Below, in pieces: positions 546 to 13,618 of a stretch of 64,000 nt of DNA. A program made the translations under genes and the position numbers. This stretch comes from Candidatus Moraniibacteriota bacterium (GTDB taxonomy: Bacteria > Patescibacteriota > Minisyncoccia > Moranbacterales > UBA1568): NCBI GenBank assembly GCA_008012175.1, contig SSEF01000020.1:24002-88001 (forward strand), in the 5' to 3' direction. Positions within the stretch are counted from its first letter, which is position 1. Every line of letters begins with the position of its first letter. The notes beneath the pieces are model-generated. The model did no database searches. It saw only the letters and a program-made list of their open reading frames with translations, and was not told the DNA's origin.

Positions 546-1811
546 CTAAACAGTCTCTCGGGAAATTCTTGCTCCGATACCCGACAACCGATCTTCAATC
601 CGCTCATAACCGCGATCAACTTGGTAAATATCCTCGATTATCGTTTCGCCCGTTCCTACAAGTGCTGCAATGATGAGTGCCGCACCAGCCCGCAGATCAT
701 AGCTCTTGATAACTGTTCCGCGGAGCGGTGTCTTGCCATGTATGAGTATCTGATGCGGATTAAGAACGGTCAGTTTTGCCCCCATCTTTTCGAGTTCAGC
801 CGCATAATTAAAACGACCTTCGAACATCGTATCAAAAATGAACGTGTCTCCGGTGGCTTGAGTCGCAAGAACAGCAAGAGGCGCCTGGATATCGGTCGGG
901 ATGCCAGGGTACGGGCGCGGATCAATCTGGAGAGATGGAGCGGAAAGCACTGGCGCGGGATGGATTGTGATCGCGTCCTCTTCAAAGGTGAAGCGTACGC
1001 CAAACTCGCGCAGACGTTCAAGCACGAGATCAAGATCATCTTCTCGGGCATGTTCAACCGTAATTTCGCTCCCTGTTGCCGCACCGAGGATGAGATAGGT
1101 CGCTGCCTCATTATGATCAGGCATGATTACGTGCTTCGCACCATGAAGATCAGAGCGACCACGGATGGTTATGGTATTCGTCCCGAGACCGGAAACAGTA
1201 GCCCCCATTTTCTCAAGGAAATGGCCGAGGTCGACGACGTGCGGTTCGCAGGCTGCAATCTTAACAGTCGTCTCACCCGGGAGGGCAGCCGCAAGCATCA
1301 TAATGTTTTCTGTCGCTGTCACTGACATTTGCCGCAAAACAACCTTGGCTGGCCGGCGGCCGGTTGCATCAATTACGAAACCTTTTTCTTCGGGCTGGAC
1401 TACGATACCAAGCTTTGCCAGCGCGTCGATATGTGCGTCAACCGGACGAGCGCCGATAACGCAGCCGCCCGGCTGACGCAATTCGAAATGATTGAAACGT
1501 GCGGAAAGCGATCCAAAAAGGAGGATCGAAGATCGAAGACGCTTCACTTTTTCTTGGTCTGCACGAGTCGGATCGATAGCATCCGGCGTGATGGCTACCG
1601 TCCGGTGCCCAAGCCACTCCACTGTAGCCCCTAAACTCTCGATGATTTCAAGCATCCGGAACACATCCTCTATCCGGGGGATGTTTTCGAGCACCGAACG
1701 TTCGCGCGAAAGAAGCGTCGCCGCAATGATCGGCGTCGCGGCATTTTTCAGCCCGTAAACGGGAATACGGCCGGACAGCTTCTTTCCGCCCTGGATTCGA
1801 AAGACTTCCAT
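546..1811 (-). CDS. murA: UDP-N-acetylglucosamine 1-carboxyvinyltransferase MurA
   Basis: 421 aa. The N-terminus FRIQGGKKLSGRIPVYGLKNAATPIIAA and the overall EPT-fold pattern are typical of MurA. It lies next to mreB. Confidence 0.9.
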   Translation of the reverse strand: MEVFRIQGGKKLSGRIPVYGLKNAATPIIAATLLSRERSVLENIPRIEDVFRMLEIIESLGATVEWLGHRTVAITPDAIDPTRADQEKVKRLRSSILLFGSLSARFNHFELRQPGGCVIGARPVDAHIDALAKLGIVVQPEEKGFVIDATGRRPAKVVLRQMSVTATENIMMLAAALPGETTVKIAACEPHVVDLGHFLEKMGATVSGLGTNTITIRGRSDLHGAKHVIMPDHNEAATYLILGAATGSEITVEHAREDDLDLVLERLREFGVRFTFEEDAITIHPAPVLSAPSLQIDPRPYPGIPTDIQAPLAVLATQATGDTFIFDTMFEGRFNYAAELEKMGAKLTVLNPHQILIHGKTPLRGTVIKSYDLRAGAALIIAALVGTGETIIEDIYQVDRGYERIEDRLSGIGARISRETV

Positions 1812-2057
1812 AGACCAGAGTATACTCCAAAAAAAACCTTATTTCAAGGCGCAATTCCGCCTCTTTTCCCTCATGAAAATGATAATCCGCTCATCGACGC
1901 GAAGGACGAGAGCGGCATCATTGAGGGTGGCGGCAGGCCTATTTTAGTGCTGCCGCGTGGGACAGGGACACCTGTTCCAGTATGCTTGAAAGCGCTTTAA
2001 CGCTTTTCTTTTTGTTTTTGTATTCTGTTTTTCGCACGAGAACGATGTAAAAAAAGA

Positions 2058-2083
2058 AAACGGGCGTTCACCCGTTTCTTCAT
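2058..2083 (-). terminator. Putative intrinsic terminator after the DGR RT gene
   Basis: Stem AAACGGG (2058-2064) pairs with CCCGTTT (2071-2077) around a 6-nt loop. On the minus strand it is followed by a T-run; on the plus strand 2044-2057 reads gtaaaaaaagaaaa. It sits immediately 3' of the RT stop codon at 2084. Confidence 0.5.
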
Positions 2084-3151
2084 TTACCTTACCAGTATAG
2101 CAGGTTTTACCCCCTCTGTCAAAGTCATTCTCTCTATCTTTTCCCTCAACCGATACCCGTTCCCATGGCTGAGCAATCCGAGATACGCATAAGCGTTCCT
2201 CTCGTCCAACATCCGAAACATCCTCCGCTTCGTTGATCCCCGCAATACGCGATGATCAGGGAAATGCACCCATCCGAGAAAGTCGACGCCCGAAGCAACG
2301 GCTTTGATCAACACCTTATCAGGATGTAAACAAAGTCCGAGTCGTTCCCAAAGAAATTTCCGGATCAATATCAGAAAACCCTCCAGTTGTTCACAGTCTC
2401 TCGACATGATGACAAAATCATCCGCGTAGCGAATGTAATACTTCGCTTTGAGCTTGTGTTTCACGAATTGATCGAATTCGTTCATGTAAATATTCACGAA
2501 AAGCTGCGAGGTCAGATTGCCAAGCGGTAACCCGATACCCGGTCTCTCTAGAGTACGAAAGCTCCGCATCACTCTTTCCAGCAACCAGAGAATATCCTGG
2601 TCAGGGATCCGGTCACGGAGAATACCAAGCAGTATTTCCTGATCGATCGACGCGAAGAACTTCCGGATATCGCACTTCAAGACCCACGCGGTTCTGGTAT
2701 CGTTACAAGAAATTTTCCTCGCAAACACTCGGAATCGATCAAGCGTCTTGTGCGTACCTTTTTCTTTGCGGCAGGAATACGAATCAGCGATGAAGAGCGT
2801 ATCGAAGAACGGATAGAGTATCCGGTAGATCGCGTGGTGGACCAATCGGTCTCTCACCGAAGCCTTGTGGATATCGCGTGGCTTGGGATCGTTTATTTTG
2901 AAGGCTTGATACCCGCCGTGCTCATACGTCTTGTTTTCTAGGTCTTCGTGGAGTGCGAAGATATGGTCCATGAGACGCGCCTCGAATACCTGGACATCTT
3001 GTTTGTTCTTCTTTCCCTTCAGAAATTCCTTCCATGCCTCAAGAAGATTTTCGAGAGATATGATATCATCGTAAACAACCGTTAATTTCTTCTTTGTTTC
3101 GCTATGGCTCTTCCTGGAGTTACCCCCCCCCGACTTGTACCAGTTTTGCAT
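2084..3151 (-). CDS. DGR reverse transcriptase. The full ORF extends to 3469, but the conserved RT domain begins near 3090 and the likely start is Met107 at 3151.
   Basis: RT motifs are present: ...LGNLTSQLFVNIYMNEFD (the DGR-specific [ILV]GxxxSQ variant of the QGxxxSP motif 4) and YADDFVIMS (the motif 5 catalytic YxDD). Upstream, RDRLVHHAIYRILYPFFDTLFIADSYSCRKEKGTHKTL matches the DGR Brt-like N-terminal region. The first 106 codons of the 461-aa ORF are the antisense strand of the avd-like gene and are probably not translated. Confidence 0.9.
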   Translation of the reverse strand: MQNWYKSGGGNSRKSHSETKKKLTVVYDDIISLENLLEAWKEFLKGKKNKQDVQVFEARLMDHIFALHEDLENKTYEHGGYQAFKINDPKPRDIHKASVRDRLVHHAIYRILYPFFDTLFIADSYSCRKEKGTHKTLDRFRVFARKISCNDTRTAWVLKCDIRKFFASIDQEILLGILRDRIPDQDILWLLERVMRSFRTLERPGIGLPLGNLTSQLFVNIYMNEFDQFVKHKLKAKYYIRYADDFVIMSRDCEQLEGFLILIRKFLWERLGLCLHPDKVLIKAVASGVDFLGWVHFPDHRVLRGSTKRRMFRMLDERNAYAYLGLLSHGNGYRLREKIERMTLTEGVKPAILVR

Positions 3152-3487
3152 AAGATAAAAGATGCGTATCTGTTTTGGTATACTCTCCTTTCTTCGCTTC
3201 CCAAGACACACCGCTACTCTCTCGGCCAGCGGATCGATCGTATCTTCATAGAATGCATCGAGTGCGTTTCGGCAGCCGCTTTTCTCTCGCCACAGGAAAA
3301 GATGCCATATGTCCGCCACGCTATCCGCAAAATCGATACGCTCAAGATTCTCCTGCTCGTCCTCTGGGAAACGAAGTCGATCGATACCAAAAAATATATC
3401 GCGCTTTCCGAAAAGATCGATGAGATCGGCAGGATGCTCGGCGGATGGAATGGACAACTCTCCAAACAAAACTCCTCCCGGAAATGA
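3104..3487 (+). CDS. avd: Avd-like accessory variability determinant. It belongs to the four-helix-bundle family, also annotated as the 23S rRNA intervening-sequence protein family.
   Basis: 127 aa. The C-terminal segment ...KKYIALSEKIDEIGRMLGGWNGQLSKQ matches the conserved Avd/four-helix-bundle C-terminal helix; compare bAvd ...AEVGRILGSWIARVNRK and IVS proteins ...ADEIGKMLNGLI. The N-terminal helix YLFWYTLLSSLPKTHRYSLGQRIDRIF matches the family's helix 1-2 region. The gene is on the plus strand, opposite to the RT, TR and target. Confidence 0.7.
   Translation: MALPGVTPPRLVPVLHKIKDAYLFWYTLLSSLPKTHRYSLGQRIDRIFIECIECVSAAAFLSPQEKMPYVRHAIRKIDTLKILLLVLWETKSIDTKKYIALSEKIDEIGRMLGGWNGQLSKQNSSRK
3123..3131. 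repeat. C9/G9 homopolymeric tract inside the antisense overlap between the avd and RT coding regions
   Basis: The sequence read is ta-ccccccccc-g. The tract covers avd codons 7-10 (T-P-P-R) and RT codons 7-10 counted from Met107 (S-G-G-G). Confidence 0.9.
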
Positions 3488-3505
3488 GAGGAGAAATGAA
3501 GAGAG

Positions 3506-3630
3506 TTGCGAAGCGCAGAGCCGGGTTATTGTCGTTCCAGTTGTTGTCGAGCCAGTTCCAGTTCAAGACAATCTGACCACCGTTCTCGATGAGGTACGGG
3601 ACGTTGAGGTTACCATTGCGGTTCTGCACG
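3506..3630 (-). repeat. DGR template repeat (TR)
   Basis: 125 bp are near-identical to 4030-4154. All 10 mismatches have T on the plus strand of this copy, which is A on the minus (sense) strand. The translated sense strand is Asn-rich (NGNLNVPYLIENGGQIVLNWNWLDNNWNDNNPALRFA), with AAC codons typical of a TR. Confidence 0.88.
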
Positions 3631-3929
3631 AATGTATAAGATGCCGTCTATACCACCGCCCATCGAATACTCTCAGGGTTGAATCGTATTCCGCATCTCA
3701 AATGCGCGAGTATCTTATACCAAGTATCTTCATTTTTTGACCCATTCGATAGGCTCAGGGTCATCCTGAGTTTTATCGAAGGATGAAGTGTCTGCATACA
3801 CCACTCTATCCGAAACGGTGGCCACGGATATTCTCAATGTATGGATACTGGATTCGGCCGCCGACGACCGTAATCACCTGCAAGATTCGCCTACTACCAA
3901 TCCCAGTGTATCAAAAAATGAGAAGTTGA

Positions 3930-3971
3930 AGAAATGAAAACCCCGCACTACCATGTAGGTAAAATGCGGGG
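3930..3971 (-). terminator. Putative intrinsic terminator after the DGR target gene
   Basis: Stem CCCCGCA (3941-3947) pairs with TGCGGGG (3965-3971). On the minus strand it is followed by TTTTCATTTCTTC. It lies 25-55 nt 3' of the target stop codon at 3995. Confidence 0.45.
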
Positions 3972-3994
3972 TCAAAGGACTAAGTATCAAGGGT

Positions 3995-4651
3995 CTAAGA
4001 GACCTGAGATACAGAGCCCTGAGGACTACTTGCGAAGCGCAGAGCCGGGTTATTGCCGTGCCAGTTGTTGCCGAGCCAGCCCCAGCTCAAGACAATCTGA
4101 CCACCGTACTCGACGAGGTACGGGACGTTGAGGTCACCATTGCGGTACTGCACGACTGATTTCCAGAGAGAGACTGCCTTGTCTCCGAAATATTTCCGGA
4201 AGATTTCGATGCCTTGCTTCTGGATTTCTTCGCCATCACGAAGCGACAGACAGCGTTCGAGTATCTTCTTTTCCTTGAGATACTCGTAGAGCTTGTGACC
4301 CTCGATACGTTGGCCATTCTTCTGCACGTCATGGAGCCAGAGGTCGACGGCCCCGAGGTCATACTCGACCGGACCGGTGGATTCCAGTTCCGGATGCATC
4401 ACCAGTTTCACCCAATCGGGATAGACGGGACGGATAGAACGATCGACATGAATGAGGGTGTCAAGCGGTGCTTCGGGTGCCAGAGTCGCTCCCTTCACTC
4501 CTTCACGAAGCACTTCAGCGAAACGTGACCGCCAGAGTTCACCATCGGTACTACCAACCTTGTTGACGGTGTCCAACAAGACTCCCAGTCGTTCTTGTGG
4601 GACACCCACGAGGGCACGGACGATGGGGGCGAGCATGTCATTTTTGGACAT
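3995..4651 (-). CDS. DGR variable (target) protein with a C-terminal C-type-lectin-like variable region
   Basis: 218 aa. The C-terminus ...VQYRNGDLNVPYLVEYGGQIVLSWGWLGNNWHGNNPALRFAS is encoded by the VR. It differs from the TR translation only at Asn/AAY-derived positions. The short GGxxxSWxxxxNNxRxAxR-like tail is typical of CLec-fold DGR targets. Confidence 0.85.
   Translation of the reverse strand: MSKNDMLAPIVRALVGVPQERLGVLLDTVNKVGSTDGELWRSRFAEVLREGVKGATLAPEAPLDTLIHVDRSIRPVYPDWVKLVMHPELESTGPVEYDLGAVDLWLHDVQKNGQRIEGHKLYEYLKEKKILERCLSLRDGEEIQKQGIEIFRKYFGDKAVSLWKSVVQYRNGDLNVPYLVEYGGQIVLSWGWLGNNWHGNNPALRFASSPQGSVSQVS
4030..4154 (-). repeat. DGR variable repeat (VR) at the 3' end of the target gene
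   Basis: Aligned 1:1 with the TR at 3506-3630, there are 10 substitutions and all fall at TR adenines. The 3'-proximal 26 nt (4030-4055 and 3506-3531) are identical and GC-rich, which is IMH-like. Confidence 0.88.
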
Positions 4652-4820
4652 GGTCTATCTCCTTTTTTGCAGGCACTAGCGGGCTCTCGAGAAATTGAGT
4701 TTGCCATAGTAGAGAAGGGCCTACATGAAGCCGCTTTCTGCTATGGCAAAACTGTATGATTTTTAAGGTTCGAAGTACTATCATACACCATTTTAGGTGT
4801 TCTGTCCAGGGTCGAGCAGG

Positions 4821-4858
4821 TCATTGAAAAGAGGCTTGCTACAGCCTCTTTTCAATGA
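4821..4858. promoter_or_regulatory. Perfect 15-bp inverted repeat (hairpin) downstream of trxB and upstream of the DGR target gene
   Basis: TCATTGAAAAGAGGC (4821-4835) and GCCTCTTTTCAATGA (4844-4858) flank an 8-nt loop. Confidence 0.4.
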
Positions 4859-4921
4859 CTCCACTCACATAACCCGCGATCGCTAATTAAGTGCTTACCG
4901 GACAAAAAAGAATGGCGGCAG

Positions 4922-5848
4922 TTAACCACCTTTGCGGACGAAGTCATAGGCGGCAAGCGCTGCCGTCACGCCCAGGCCGGCCGAGATATTGTTCTGCTTA
5001 TACGGAGCATCGGTCGCATCTCCGGTAGCGTAAATACCCAGCTTGGACGTTGAGGCATTCCTCGTATCGAGGACGATTTCACCACGCTCGTTCAAATCAA
5101 GGATATCCTTCACGAATTCAGTATTTGGAACCATGCCGATCTCGACGAATACCCCATCAAGCGCGATGTCCTTCTTTTCGCCTGATGTCTTGTCGAGATA
5201 GCGGAGCCCTTCAACATGAGCATTGCCAAGTATCTCGGCTGTCTCGCCGCTATAGATAACTCTCACTTTTGGGGAGGCAGCGATCTTGTCTTGGGTTACT
5301 TTGTCGCCTTTCAGCTCGGTACCACGAGCAATGAGCGTGATATCATCGGCATACGGCAAAAGGTCCTCGACAGCTTCGAGTGCCGAATTGCCGCTCCCGA
5401 TCACCGCAACCCTCTTGGCCCGGAAAAAAGGCGCATCACAAGTTGAGCAAAATACGACCCCCTTACCGATGAATCTCTCTTCACCTGGAACCTCGAGATG
5501 GCGATGCCGGCCGCCAGTTGCAACAATGACCGTCTTTGTTTCATAGCTCCCCTTATCGGTAATAAGCTGATAGCCGCCAGAGGAAAGTTCCTTGAGACCC
5601 GTTGCACGTTCACCGGTCCTGATTTCTATCCCCTCCTGTGCCCGTAAATGCTTCTCGAGCGCCTGACCGAATTCCCAGCCCGGGATGGTCACGGTCCCGA
5701 TCCAGTTTTCGATCGAAGCCGAGACCACCGACTGACTCAGGAAGCTTTCCGTGACAAAAAGCGTCTTCATCTGCTTTCGCGCCGCATACACCCCTGCCGC
5801 TACACCGCCCGGACCACCACCTACAATTATGCAGTCATACATACACAT
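4922..5848 (-). CDS. trxB: Thioredoxin-disulfide reductase (pyridine nucleotide-disulfide oxidoreductase)
   Basis: 308 aa. N-terminal FAD motif IIVGGGPGG, redox-active CSTCD (CxxC), and a second NAD(P) motif AVIGSGNSALE. Confidence 0.85.
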   Translation of the reverse strand: MCMYDCIIVGGGPGGVAAGVYAARKQMKTLFVTESFLSQSVVSASIENWIGTVTIPGWEFGQALEKHLRAQEGIEIRTGERATGLKELSSGGYQLITDKGSYETKTVIVATGGRHRHLEVPGEERFIGKGVVFCSTCDAPFFRAKRVAVIGSGNSALEAVEDLLPYADDITLIARGTELKGDKVTQDKIAASPKVRVIYSGETAEILGNAHVEGLRYLDKTSGEKKDIALDGVFVEIGMVPNTEFVKDILDLNERGEIVLDTRNASTSKLGIYATGDATDAPYKQNNISAGLGVTAALAAYDFVRKGG

Positions 5849-6210: not shown

Positions 6211-7629
6211 CTACCCTGTCTTGATAAGACGTTTAACTCCGTCACGGAATTGGTTGCCACGATCAAACTCATTCTGAAAAAGCCCAAAGCTCGCGACACC
6301 GGGCGAAAGTAGGACGACATCGCCGGAACAGGCTTCATCGGTTGCGACCCGAATTGCGTCTTCCATGCTCGTGACGACCGGAAAGACGGCTTCCGATTTT
6401 CCCATCGCAGTTGCCTCTTTCTCCATGAGGGGCAGGAGTTTTTCCGTTGCCGTCCCTTGAAGCAGGATCACTGCCTTTGGCTCGCTCACGAAAACACGCG
6501 CGAGCTCGGCATAATCAAATGCCTTGTCTGCGCCGCCTGCAATGAGCACGACTGGCTCCTCAAATGATCGAATTCCAGCAATCGCCGCTTCAGGCATGGT
6601 TGCCGCCGTATCATTATAAAAAACAACTCCGCTTTTCTCACCGACGCGTTCAAGCCGATGCGGGACACCAGCAAAGTTTTCAAGTGCCGCAAGAAGAGCA
6701 TCCGAACGTACGTTCTGGAGACGCGCTACAGCAATCGCTGCGAGGATATTGCCACGGTTATGCTGGCCCCGAAGTGCTGTCTTCGGCCAAGGGAAAAGCT
6801 CGGATTCCCTTTCCATCACCCGTTCAAACACATGGCCGTCCCGGACAAAAATCCCTTCATCCTGCAGCATGTCTCCATCGGAAAACCACACGACTCGACC
6901 AGGGGCTTTCGCCGCGAAAGCCCGTGTGCCTTCGTTGTCTCGATTAAGAATAAGCACATCGTCTTTCTTCTGGTAACGGAAAATGATCTCCTTATCGGAC
7001 ACATAAGCCGTCATCTTCTTGTAGTAGTTCAGATGGTCGGGATAGATATTTGTCACTACCGCAATAACCGGAGAGTACTTATGTGAAGCAAAGGATGAAA
7101 GACGCCAGCTCGAGAGTTCAGCAACCGCCAGCGCCCGCTCTGACACTTCATCAATCGCATCCAGAAATCCTACCTGATTGATCCCTACTCGGACGATTTC
7201 CTGATTGGACTGTTCAAGGATATGAGCGATAAGAGAAGCTGTTGTTGTTTTTCCCTTAGTTCCGGTGATGCCGATCATCGGCCGCTTTACAAGCGCAGTA
7301 AAAATGCTTGCATCCATCTCGACTGGTACCCCATTCTCCAAGGCGATCCTGATATACTCGTTTGTCCAGGGAATACCAGGATTCTTCACGACCATATCAG
7401 TTTGAGTGAAATCCTCTGGACGGTGTTGGCCAAGTACATAGACTATGTTCTTGTACTTCGAGAGTTCTGCCAGAGTTGGAGCGAGGTCTTCTCTTGTTTT
7501 GATATCAGTCGCAATCACTTCACGAACGCCGACATCGATTAGAAATTTTATCACTGCCAAAGCACCTCGGTTAAGACCGATACCGAAGACCGTGATACGC
7601 TTTCCTTTGAACCATTCGCGTTTCAACAT
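6211..7629 (-). CDS. murD: UDP-N-acetylmuramoyl-L-alanine--D-glutamate ligase MurD
   Basis: 472 aa. It has a Mur ligase N-terminal Rossmann domain, the P-loop GITGTKGKTTT, and the typical MurD length. Confidence 0.88.
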   Translation of the reverse strand: MLKREWFKGKRITVFGIGLNRGALAVIKFLIDVGVREVIATDIKTREDLAPTLAELSKYKNIVYVLGQHRPEDFTQTDMVVKNPGIPWTNEYIRIALENGVPVEMDASIFTALVKRPMIGITGTKGKTTTASLIAHILEQSNQEIVRVGINQVGFLDAIDEVSERALAVAELSSWRLSSFASHKYSPVIAVVTNIYPDHLNYYKKMTAYVSDKEIIFRYQKKDDVLILNRDNEGTRAFAAKAPGRVVWFSDGDMLQDEGIFVRDGHVFERVMERESELFPWPKTALRGQHNRGNILAAIAVARLQNVRSDALLAALENFAGVPHRLERVGEKSGVVFYNDTAATMPEAAIAGIRSFEEPVVLIAGGADKAFDYAELARVFVSEPKAVILLQGTATEKLLPLMEKEATAMGKSEAVFPVVTSMEDAIRVATDEACSGDVVLLSPGVASFGLFQNEFDRGNQFRDGVKRLIKTG

Positions 7630-12592: not shown

Positions 12593-13618
12593 TCAGGCTA
12601 CTTTCAACTGTTCGCGGAGAAAGGTGGCTGCTTTCTCGGGCTCGATCGATGAGATTTCGATCCCTGTTGAAAGCTCGAAGCCGGCCCAGGTCGCCGTATG
12701 CGGTGCAATTTCAATGTGCCACTGGAAATGCGGATAGTCCTTGCCATCACACGGTGCAGTATAGAGATAAAAATTATAGGCCGGATCTCCCAATCCTACA
12801 TAGATTGACTGGAGTGCTTTTTGAAGAGCATCGCCTGCTGTGAATTTTTCGGCCTCAGTCATCCGCTCGAAATATGGATTAGGTCGTTTTCCTACGACCC
12901 AGAGCTCAAATGCGACACGCGACGCATACGGAGCAAAGACAACAAAATCATCGTTCTCATAGACGAGTCGCTTTCGTTTTTCCTGTTCATAATCGACCAT
13001 AACACTGTAGACACGCTGACGATGACTCTTGTAGAAGCGCTCTGCACCGGAAAGGATCGATTCGACATATGGCGCTACGACCGGCACAGCCATGAGCTGG
13101 GAGTGCGGATGCGCGACGGAAGCGCCAGCTTCCTTGCCATGATTATGAAAAATCTGGATATAATTGACGCTCGCCTTGTTCATAAGCGCGAGATAACGGT
13201 CCTGATACGCGTCAAGGAGCTCCGCTACCTGCCAGTTCTCGAAAAGAGCGATCGAGCGATCCGCATCGCGCGTCACGATGACCTCATGGTATCCAACGGC
13301 AGACATGCCGAAATACGGACCATCAGCAAGCGACTTCGGACGACCATTTGAACGCGATACTGCCGGATACTTGTTGGGAAAAACCCGCAGGCTCCAGTCG
13401 CCGTCCGGGCGCATATAGATGAGTGTGTCTTCCTCTTGCCCGCTTGCTTCTGGATTCTCAAAAATATCCGGGCTCTTGGCCGTGTCAGCGCGGGGCGGAG
13501 CAACAAAGTCATCGGGACGCTTTGCTCGGGCTGTCGCTATGATGACCCAGTCCCCGGTCACCAGATCCTGCCGAAGTTCGGATACTCCTTGACGCTTGTT
13601 TTCTTCTCTGGCTGCCAT
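12593..13618 (-). CDS. galT: Galactose-1-phosphate uridylyltransferase (HIT superfamily)
   Basis: 341 aa. HPHSQ (HxHxQ) active-site motif and a GalT-like two-domain pattern. Confidence 0.75.
   Translation of the reverse strand: MAAREENKRQGVSELRQDLVTGDWVIIATARAKRPDDFVAPPRADTAKSPDIFENPEASGQEEDTLIYMRPDGDWSLRVFPNKYPAVSRSNGRPKSLADGPYFGMSAVGYHEVIVTRDADRSIALFENWQVAELLDAYQDRYLALMNKASVNYIQIFHNHGKEAGASVAHPHSQLMAVPVVAPYVESILSGAERFYKSHRQRVYSVMVDYEQEKRKRLVYENDDFVVFAPYASRVAFELWVVGKRPNPYFERMTEAEKFTAGDALQKALQSIYVGLGDPAYNFYLYTAPCDGKDYPHFQWHIEIAPHTATWAGFELSTGIEISSIEPEKAATFLREQLKVA

Follow-up and report, generated by a model that had tools for sequence, protein, structure and literature searches.

What keeps a retroelement that rewrites one particular gene at work in the middle of a block of housekeeping genes, and what might govern how often it acts? 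The question is raised by positions 2058-4651, mainly on the minus strand, of a 64-kb stretch of contig SSEF01000020.1 (assembly GCA_008012175.1), hereafter the window. The public record of the target protein places the host in a Candidatus Moraniibacteriota metagenome-assembled genome (MAG). An earlier interpretation, made from the letters of the DNA (the sequence-only reading), had described here a complete diversity-generating retroelement (DGR). We found every part that it listed, with coordinates that agree to within a few bases, and its remark that DGRs are abundant in small-genome lineages is consistent with the host. We have little doubt that the element is a chromosomal and currently active DGR of the clade found in Patescibacteria, the candidate phyla radiation (CPR). 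Its core parts are the following.

2084-3151, minus strand: DGR reverse transcriptase (RT), 355 aa from ATG 3151, assigned by RVT_1, motifs and structure match.
3104-3487, plus strand: avd (accessory variability determinant), probable start TTG 3146, assigned by bAvd, DivGenRetAVD and frame analysis.
3506-3631, minus strand: template repeat (TR), 126 nt with 34 adenines, invariant.
4030-4155, minus strand: variable repeat (VR), target codons 166-207, in a 126-nt ungapped alignment to the TR.
3995-4651, minus strand: target (variable-protein) gene, a 218-aa open reading frame (ORF) deposited as TXH07328.1, 'hypothetical protein'.

Read along the minus strand, the 218-aa ORF (4651-3995) is followed by ~360 nt of non-coding DNA, the repeat copy 3631-3506 and the RT ORF, which ends at 2084. 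The avd gene is located on the plus strand, between the repeat copy and the RT, and is antisense to the RT, the TR and the target; this orientation was missing from the sequence-only reading.

The RT matched Pfam RVT_1 with E 1.9e-20 and carried the DGR variant of motif 4, LGNLTSQ (2524-2504), together with YADD (2428-2417), both of which the sequence-only reading had noticed. Among solved structures (phmmer against the PDB), the best match was the 328-aa RT of 8ub7-8ube (E 5e-47, 164 bits), which we take to be the Bordetella phage bRT. In the alignment, IGSLTSQ stood opposite LGNLTSQ and YMDD opposite YADD. Retron-type and group II RTs reached at most 71 bits (~1e-18) in the same search, and the scores against the NCBIfam retron, Drt and group II models were far under their cut-offs. 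Both results bear out the expectation that the enzyme groups with DGR RTs and not with retron or group II RTs. A role as a defence RT was considered and dropped: the PADLOC match of the RT was to generic RT/DRT models, as for any RT, and Avd and the target had no PADLOC match. As to the start of the RT, no match of any relative began before residue 1 (ATG 3151), which is the nearest in-frame start to the conserved core beginning at ~residue 25. We rejected the 461-aa ORF that opens at TTG 3469 (mechanical ORF 2084-3469) as the RT; its first ~106 codons are the antisense of avd.

The 127-codon ORF 3104-3487 scored 46.7 bits against Pfam bAvd (PF22296; cut-off 40), so that the Avd-like ORF of the sequence-only reading is present and above threshold. 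It also matched NCBIfam DivGenRetAVD with E 2.3e-19 and 69.6 bits, from residue 13 onward. A sequence comparison of Avd with the PDB gave no meaningful match.

The repeat search reported the TR and VR as a pair of 129 nt at 91%, of which we took 126 nt. On the minus strand the two copies differed at 10 positions, all 10 of them A in the TR and in the first or second position of a codon; by the hypergeometric distribution, the probability of every mismatch falling on A is 7.5e-7. The adenine-specific divergence noticed earlier in a ~125-bp pair was thus still adenine-restricted when re-aligned. An extra T-to-G difference was located at the 5′ edge of the repeat (3632/4156). The TR holds 13 AAC/AAT codons, and 33 of its 34 adenines occupy codon positions 1 or 2, where they could recode up to 20 codons; such changes can give rise to no stop codon, and in theory ~1e19 proteins are possible. 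The VR comprises codons 166-207 of the 218, at the 3′ end of the target ORF as had been described. Its last ~20 nt (CCCGGCUCUGCGCUUCGCAA) are G+C-rich, invariant and similar to an initiation of mutagenic homing (IMH) site. The last 26 nt are the same in TR and VR, and the sequences part only beyond the repeat. No further VR was found in the 64-kb window by blastn or by an A-degenerate pattern search.

The evidence for present activity came from the same species. We compared 12 assembled contigs from independent runs (L081-L092) with the window, 13 sequences altogether. The data sets behind the contigs were SRR17347198, SRR30113344, SRR8643121, SRR31222564-66, SRR13867566, ERZ15185895 and ERZ4216102. 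Outside the VR the contigs showed 0-6 substitutions relative to the window over up to 7.5 kb, whereas inside the 126-nt VR there were 9-22, all at TR-adenine positions. The 13 sequences carried 6 VR alleles; all 25 variable positions corresponded to TR adenines, none of the 92 non-A TR positions varied across the 6 alleles, and the TR itself was identical in all 12 contigs. The spectrum was A>G 50, A>T 15 and A>C 3. One allele was present in six contigs and another in three, and as the same allele recurs in several runs, diversification must be slower than one allele per sample. At the protein level, the 90%-identity cluster of the target contained nine 218-aa sequences that differed almost only at residues 169-201. 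The sequence-only reading had chosen VR heterogeneity beforehand as the test on which it could fail; what we observed were 6 alleles that differ at TR adenines only, between near-identical flanks. Judged by these adenine-restricted alleles, the constant TR and the constant flanks in assembled DNA, the DGR is naturally active.

We then placed the element among its relatives. An RT scan of species-representative genomes confirmed 585 RT-relative stretches, of which 80 loci were kept, 75 of them with sequence upstream of the RT. The 80 RTs were 57-71% identical to that of the window and nearly all came from MAGs labelled as Patescibacteria lineages, including Moranbacteria, Kaiserbacteria, Paceibacterota and 'Saccharibacteria'. 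An Avd homologue was located immediately upstream of the RT, on the opposite strand, in 75 of the 75 loci. A TR with A-biased mismatches occupied the same place beside avd in 61, and in nearly all of these the VR followed on the same strand ~390-550 nt further upstream (start to start). We also observed another target placement in the same clade: two loci of the (GA)n type (L049 and L057) have the VR downstream of the RT and on the other strand (7082-7253).

The junction between avd and the RT contains a feature that the sequence-only reading did not list.

3123-3131, neither strand in particular: homopolymer at the junction of the divergent avd and RT genes, reading G9 along the RT strand and C9 along that of avd.

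No other G/C run of at least 8 occurs in the 64-kb window, where shorter runs include a C7 at 28625. The tract falls within the RT frame, at codons 8-10 from ATG 3151. We compared it across L001-L080, L081-L092, L183-L189 and L192-L196. Within the species, two contigs had G8, the window and two contigs G9, three G10 and two G11; two further contigs end inside the tract. Apart from a 1-nt deletion at 3802 in one contig (L091), tract length accounted for all indels among the same-species contigs. A second species (seven contigs with 0-1 substitutions) showed G10 versus G12 as the sole indel in 5.7 kb, and a third had G7, G9 and G10, one pair of its contigs having zero substitutions over 3.5 kb. 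Among the 75 relatives, a G6-G14 run, mostly of 8-11, was present between avd and the RT in 59, and 11 of the remaining 16 had a simple repeat of a different type in its place, (CT)n, (GA)n, (GGCT)n, (GT)n or (GCTGATT)n, which argues that repetitiveness, and not the sequence, is conserved. The related loci, 800 kb in total, held 58 G/C runs of at least 8, of which 56 were located at the avd/RT junction. Sole G10 runs away from the DGR junction were found in one locus (L077, 3404-3413 and 5253-5262), each directly before a -10-like hexamer, TATAAT or GATATT, and the ATG of a different gene; promoters with a G-tract may serve that organism more generally as contingency devices.

A change in tract length alters the reading frame of the RT. 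The G9 of the window keeps ATG 3151 in frame; a tract of G8 or G11 leaves GTG 3209 as the sole in-frame start, and one of G10 leaves TTG 3204. A start of the RT downstream of the tract was rejected, as this genome, unlike most relatives, has no start codon there. On the opposite strand, the probable avd start, TTG 3146, just 3′ of the C-tract, is unaffected by tract length, and ATG 3104 is in frame with avd only at C9 or C12. Gene callers follow the tract into models that differ and are wrong: they give a 461-aa 'RT' for G9, truncated RTs of 283-295 aa for G10 and RTs of 374-375 aa for G8 and G11. They also give a spurious 143-aa ORF across the TR (3309-3740) and leave avd uncalled in L081-L092. 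With G9, the RT and the antisense of avd are called as one 461-aa ORF, so that avd remains unannotated.

The tract may also act at the level of transcription. A TAnnnT hexamer, resembling a -10 element, directly follows the tract in ~25 of 60 G-tract loci. The full pattern CTGGYA (-35-like)-N-G(n)-TAnnnT-N-ATG was present in 11 loci, with spacers of 15-22 nt, mostly 17-19, and in 8 of these 11 the RT ATG stands 7 nt after the -10-like hexamer. Such an arrangement is that of a leaderless promoter, here a predicted one, whose spacer contains the repeat. On balance we favour the G8-11 tract as a slipped-strand contingency switch on the DGR. A wider proposal, to which we give somewhat less than even weight, is that the DGRs of Patescibacteria carry a built-in, selected simple sequence repeat (SSR) switch between avd and the RT, which would tune the expression of the RT and perhaps of Avd, and that this switch and the 5′ RNA domain described next form an undescribed regulatory and RNA layer. 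In literature that did not cover the primary CPR DGR paper, we found nothing relevant that links DGRs or Patescibacteria to phase variation, homopolymers or SSRs.

The TR is enclosed by two structured RNA elements.

3634-3737, minus strand: conserved structured RNA domain directly 5′ of the TR, identified by RNAalifold, covariation and covariance model R1.
3462-3505, minus strand: post-TR linker CUCUCUUCAUUU, 8-bp stem-loop (3493-3472) and UUUUGUUUGG, identified by folding.

In the 5′ domain, the 12-bp helix P1 (3720-3709 with 3645-3634) borders the TR, with two hairpins, P2 and P3, inside it; conserved sequence continues upstream to ~3808. In an alignment of 37 loci, 96.2% of the cells were paired, compared with 30-52% when the partners were slid. 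We counted 200 compensatory cells, and none of 500 shuffles reached the observed values (RNAalifold and pair counts). The covariance model R1 matched the window at 3618-3737 with 107 bits. It matched 73 DGR loci, at least 12 of them outside the seed alignment, with one match per locus, always just upstream of the TR and on the RT strand; there was no match in one empty-site locus or in one orphan-target locus. An extra weak match (33.5 bits) was observed in L022 at 12817-12980, minus strand, far from the DGR of that locus, and may mark a second or degenerate DGR. A scan of 1500-5500 against Rfam 15 with E ≤1 returned no family. Further upstream, the window has another hairpin (CACUUCA...UGAAG, 3786-3726), whose loop carries a ~47-nt insertion that most relatives lack.

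On the 3′ side, the post-TR stem-loop (3493-3472) folded with z = -5.67, and a hairpin followed by a U-tract was present after the TR in 56 of 61 loci, compared with 4.6% of shuffles. These hairpins had 56 different stem sequences, with CUCC...GGAG as the typical closing pairs. As reported in a preprint by Handa et al., putative Avd-binding stem-loops lie just downstream of the TR in 207 of 278 DGRs, CPR members included. By analogy, the post-TR hairpin probably corresponds to this Avd-binding stem-loop, and its U-tract may also end the TR transcript. The element 3462-3505 and the stop codon of avd overlap in antisense. A further helix, which would pair the post-TR linker with sequence past the U-tract, was strong in the window; we set it aside, since on inspection by eye it did not seem conserved in other loci. 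It is probable that the 5′ domain and the 3′ stem-loop delimit the CPR DGR RNA. Its ends are predicted at ~3808 or 3737 on the 5′ side and at 3462 on the 3′ side, and its priming and the homing chemistry are taken by analogy from BPP-1.

How the cassette came to its site could be read from relatives that lack it. The ends of the inserted DNA and the ancestral sequence next to it are as follows.

4820-4864, neither strand in particular: left end of the inserted DNA, set by the empty-site homology stop at ~4865; the right end is at ~2109-2123.
2048-2122, minus strand: ancestral intergenic element reused by the cassette, with homologous sequence in DGR-free L094, L096, L097 and L104.

The empty sites were found by a metagenome scan with MurA. 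In the DGR-free relatives (MurA identity 65-79%), the gene order is amidohydrolase-murD-csoR-like-trxB-murA, and trxB adjoins murA with ~190-650 nt between them; the cassette is therefore an insertion. In the closest relative (L094; TrxB 85% identical), homology to the window ends at ~4865 and restarts at ~2108, and in L096 and L097 it restarts at 2122, so that ~2.75 kb were inserted. These sites bear out the claim of a chromosomal, non-phage insertion between murA and trxB. At its left edge the insert has a perfect 17-bp inverted repeat (4859-4843 / 4836-4820; GTCATTGAAAAGAGGCT / AGCCTCTTTTCAATGAC), which folds with -33.2 kcal/mol and z = -8.8 and has no U-tract. We also found AATGAC again near the right edge (~2126-2131). 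The inverted repeat and AATGAC are a possible recombination or insertion signature.

The right end of the insert falls inside the C-terminal tail of the RT, and the last ~13 RT codons are ancestral intergenic flank DNA. The promoter-like TTGACA-17-TATACT at 2122-2094 is ancestral too, and is followed within ~15 nt by a hairpin (2078-2057) and U-tract; this hairpin and U-tract (2078-2048), the terminator of the RT, is likewise kept in DGR-free relatives. The promoter is near consensus and has a TG (TTGACA-17-TG-TATACT), and after the element comes a conserved murA leader of ~240 nt (1812-2047). The whole region of promoter, hairpin and leader (1812-2122) is 77% identical to DGR-free relatives and has no match in Rfam; it might give a small RNA or act as an attenuator ahead of murA. 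We must also note one relative with MurA 74% identical (L095), in which the C-terminus of a DGR-type RT (55% identical) is located directly upstream of murA (2-247; 544-1806); its contig begins inside the RT. Either the site is a hotspot, or it received the DGR long ago and other lineages have since lost it.

The target gene is accompanied by two putative signals of transcription.

4780-4808, minus strand: promoter-like site of the target gene, TGGACA-17-TATGAT, a candidate from a consensus scan.
3929-3973, minus strand: stem-loop and U-tract after the target stop, hairpin 3973-3939, then UUUUCAUUUC.

A Shine-Dalgarno sequence, AAGGAG, is located 8 nt ahead of the target ATG (4651). The stem-loop (-22.1 kcal/mol, z = -3.55, 0 of 200 shuffles) stands ~57 nt beyond the end of the VR. 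It looks like an intrinsic terminator, and by analogy a retrohoming role like that of the BPP-1 post-IMH hairpin is possible. The sequence-only reading had every transcription unit capped by a hairpin and U-tract. We observed such caps after the target, the TR and the RT, that of the RT being the ancestral one, whereas avd has no terminator of its own.

The target had at least 218 homologues of 200-260 aa, the few named ones all from Patescibacteria, and no Pfam domain in any of them. Their N-termini vary around a conserved core of ~150 aa, and the hypervariable columns coincide with the VR. The AlphaFold model (predicted local distance difference test score, pLDDT, 89) places three helices at the N-terminus, followed by a linker and by an alpha/beta domain that has the VR in its last beta-strands. 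No signal peptide or transmembrane (TM) segment was visible in the target sequence. The comparison class for its fold is that of the C-type-lectin-fold DGR variable proteins (Mtd, 1yu0; TvpA, 2y3c); Foldseek against the PDB and BFVD gave nothing significant, and we therefore refrain from assigning the target to the C-type lectins. We infer a cytoplasmic binding protein, possibly with a C-type-lectin-like domain. A 72%-identical homologue (P0017, L173-L182) was observed amid VTT_dom, Lnb_N and DHO_dh genes, with the same protein sequence on 14 contigs and no RT, avd or TR nearby. It is apparently an orphan, frozen copy of a DGR target. We dropped these loci as a test of tract variation, since they are orphan genes without an adjacent DGR.

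The recurrence of the same VR allele in several runs, in six contigs and in three, would also be expected if the DGR were a decaying relic whose VR differences stem from old divergence, ordinary positive selection or recombination. We consider this barely tenable. The variable sites are TR adenines in 25 of 25 cases and the 92 non-A positions are all constant, the flanks are near-identical over kilobases, and the RT, Avd, the TR and the RNA elements are all intact. Scarcely better is the prospect that the cassette belongs to a prophage or another mobile element instead of being a stand-alone chromosomal insertion, which we regard as very improbable. It would agree with the lower G+C of the cassette (49.5% versus 53.5% for the window), with its clear insertion and the perfect 17-bp inverted repeat at one end, and with DGR neighbourhoods that differ among the relatives. 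The ~2.75-kb insert, however, holds DGR parts only, with no integrase, transposase or phage gene within it, and is flanked on both sides by housekeeping genes on the same strand; moreover, the RT beside murA in L095 suggests long residence at the site. We therefore keep to a chromosomal and active DGR, against which the following should be weighed: the grouping of the RT was score-based; the 69.6 bits of avd are under the curated NCBIfam Avd cut-off of 80; IMH and IMH* are indistinguishable inside the repeat, whose last 26 nt are identical; and the mechanistic steps are all drawn by analogy with BPP-1.

The case of the G-tract is less one-sided. It might be a fixed structural or regulatory sequence, such as a promoter, a 5′ untranslated region (5′-UTR) or an RNA element, that does not phase-vary, its length differences being sequencing or assembly noise. 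Several observations favour this, and most of them also count against a switch: the lengths come from assembled contigs and sequencing is prone to error in homopolymers of 8 or more, two contigs have coverages of only 1.2x and 3.1x by name, two simply break at the tract, and each of the three frames offers some potential start codon. In addition, slippage of the RNA polymerase on G9-11 could blur the frames, and the promoters are predicted hexamers only. Noise nevertheless accounts poorly for four lengths (8, 9, 10 and 11) in 10 contigs as the sole indel over 3-7.5 kb except in L091, for variation in two other species as well (G10/G12; G7/G9/G10), for a different simple repeat at the same position in 11 relatives, and for the placement of 56 of the 58 long G/C runs at this junction. 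We thus find a fixed tract unlikely and a contingency switch the better account.

If the parts work as in BPP-1, the minus strand would yield an RNA with the three-helix 5′ domain (3737-3634), the TR (3631-3506) and the 3′ stem-loop with its U-tract (3493-3462). The RT (2084-3151) and Avd (3146-3487) would reverse-transcribe this RNA, misincorporating opposite template adenines, and the resulting cDNA would take the place of the VR (4155-4030), which lies at the 3′ end of the gene for the 218-aa target. Up to 20 codons would be recoded, with ~1e19 possible proteins and no stops. By a change in tract length, lineages would stochastically raise or lower this mutagenesis.

As a DGR, the element adds one more well-documented active example to a clade catalogued by thousands. 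The comparison with empty sites shows that a 2.75-kb cassette can stand by itself among housekeeping genes, without any recognisable gene for mobility. The junction repeat keeps its position in most of the clade and varies in length in three species. It offers a concrete, testable answer to how DGR activity is regulated and how a cell keeps from destroying a good variant: if it is true, targeted hypermutation would itself be phase-variable, so that a lineage could hold on to a VR allele that serves it and resume diversification afterwards, and the most DGR-rich lineage would possess a previously undescribed regulatory and RNA layer. The CPR DGR RNA, arranged unlike the structure-solved BPP-1 RNA, is a defined substrate for structural and biochemical work, and the covariance model R1 marks TRs for annotators. 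Both the junction repeat and the RNA structure flanking the TR are properties of the clade, not of the window locus alone.

As reported by Wu et al. 2018 (PMC5758913), 90% of CPR DGRs have the layout 'B3', TR-(avd)-RT, and Roux et al. 2021 (PMC8144416) described DGR clade 2 as Patescibacteria-restricted and cellular, with targets without recognisable domains. The window element has the same gene order and antisense avd, is cellular and not viral, and has the same small target without a recognisable domain or TM segment, a C-terminal VR and an AAC-rich TR. On account of this layout and these traits it is an ordinary member of the described CPR DGR clade, from which it differs in nothing essential. 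The CPR DGR type itself is already known; the hypervariable junction repeat and the 5′ RNA domain are new. Neither these nor empty-site evidence of insertion was mentioned in the CPR DGR literature that we searched, which did not cover Paul et al. 2017 (Nat Microbiol).

With the BPP-1 DGR (mtd-avd-TR-brt), the element shares the [ILV]GxxxSQ motif of the RT, the strong match to the RT of the 8ub7 series, and Avd. The adenine-specific change from TR to VR is also common to both, as is a VR that ends the gene and closes with a G+C-rich invariant segment, and a stem-loop just 3′ of the TR, which in BPP-1 binds Avd. The two differ in the position of avd, in the window on the other strand and between TR and RT, and in their RNA: the conserved structure of the window is mostly 5′ of the TR, whereas that of BPP-1 is in the 140-nt 3′ spacer, and in the window a U-tract follows the 3′ stem-loop. 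The hairpin past the VR is ~57 nt away in the window and adjoins the IMH in BPP-1. Moreover, the window element is chromosomal and not phage-borne, and its target is no tail fibre.

For the junction repeat, the proper comparison is with SSR contingency loci. These include the poly-G/C promoter spacers of Neisseria porA and opc, the (TA)n between the divergent Haemophilus genes hifA and hifB, the poly-C of Bordetella fim and the poly-G tracts in Campylobacter ORFs. The present repeat is known from sequence alone, in a CPR host, for which the literature searched held no report of phase variation. Its placement is the same, in the 5′ coding region or between -35-like and -10-like hexamers of divergent genes, its length varies in the same way in otherwise identical genomes, and the type of repeat changes while its position is kept. 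What sets it apart is that the genes it would control encode the mutator, RT and Avd, and not a surface antigen.

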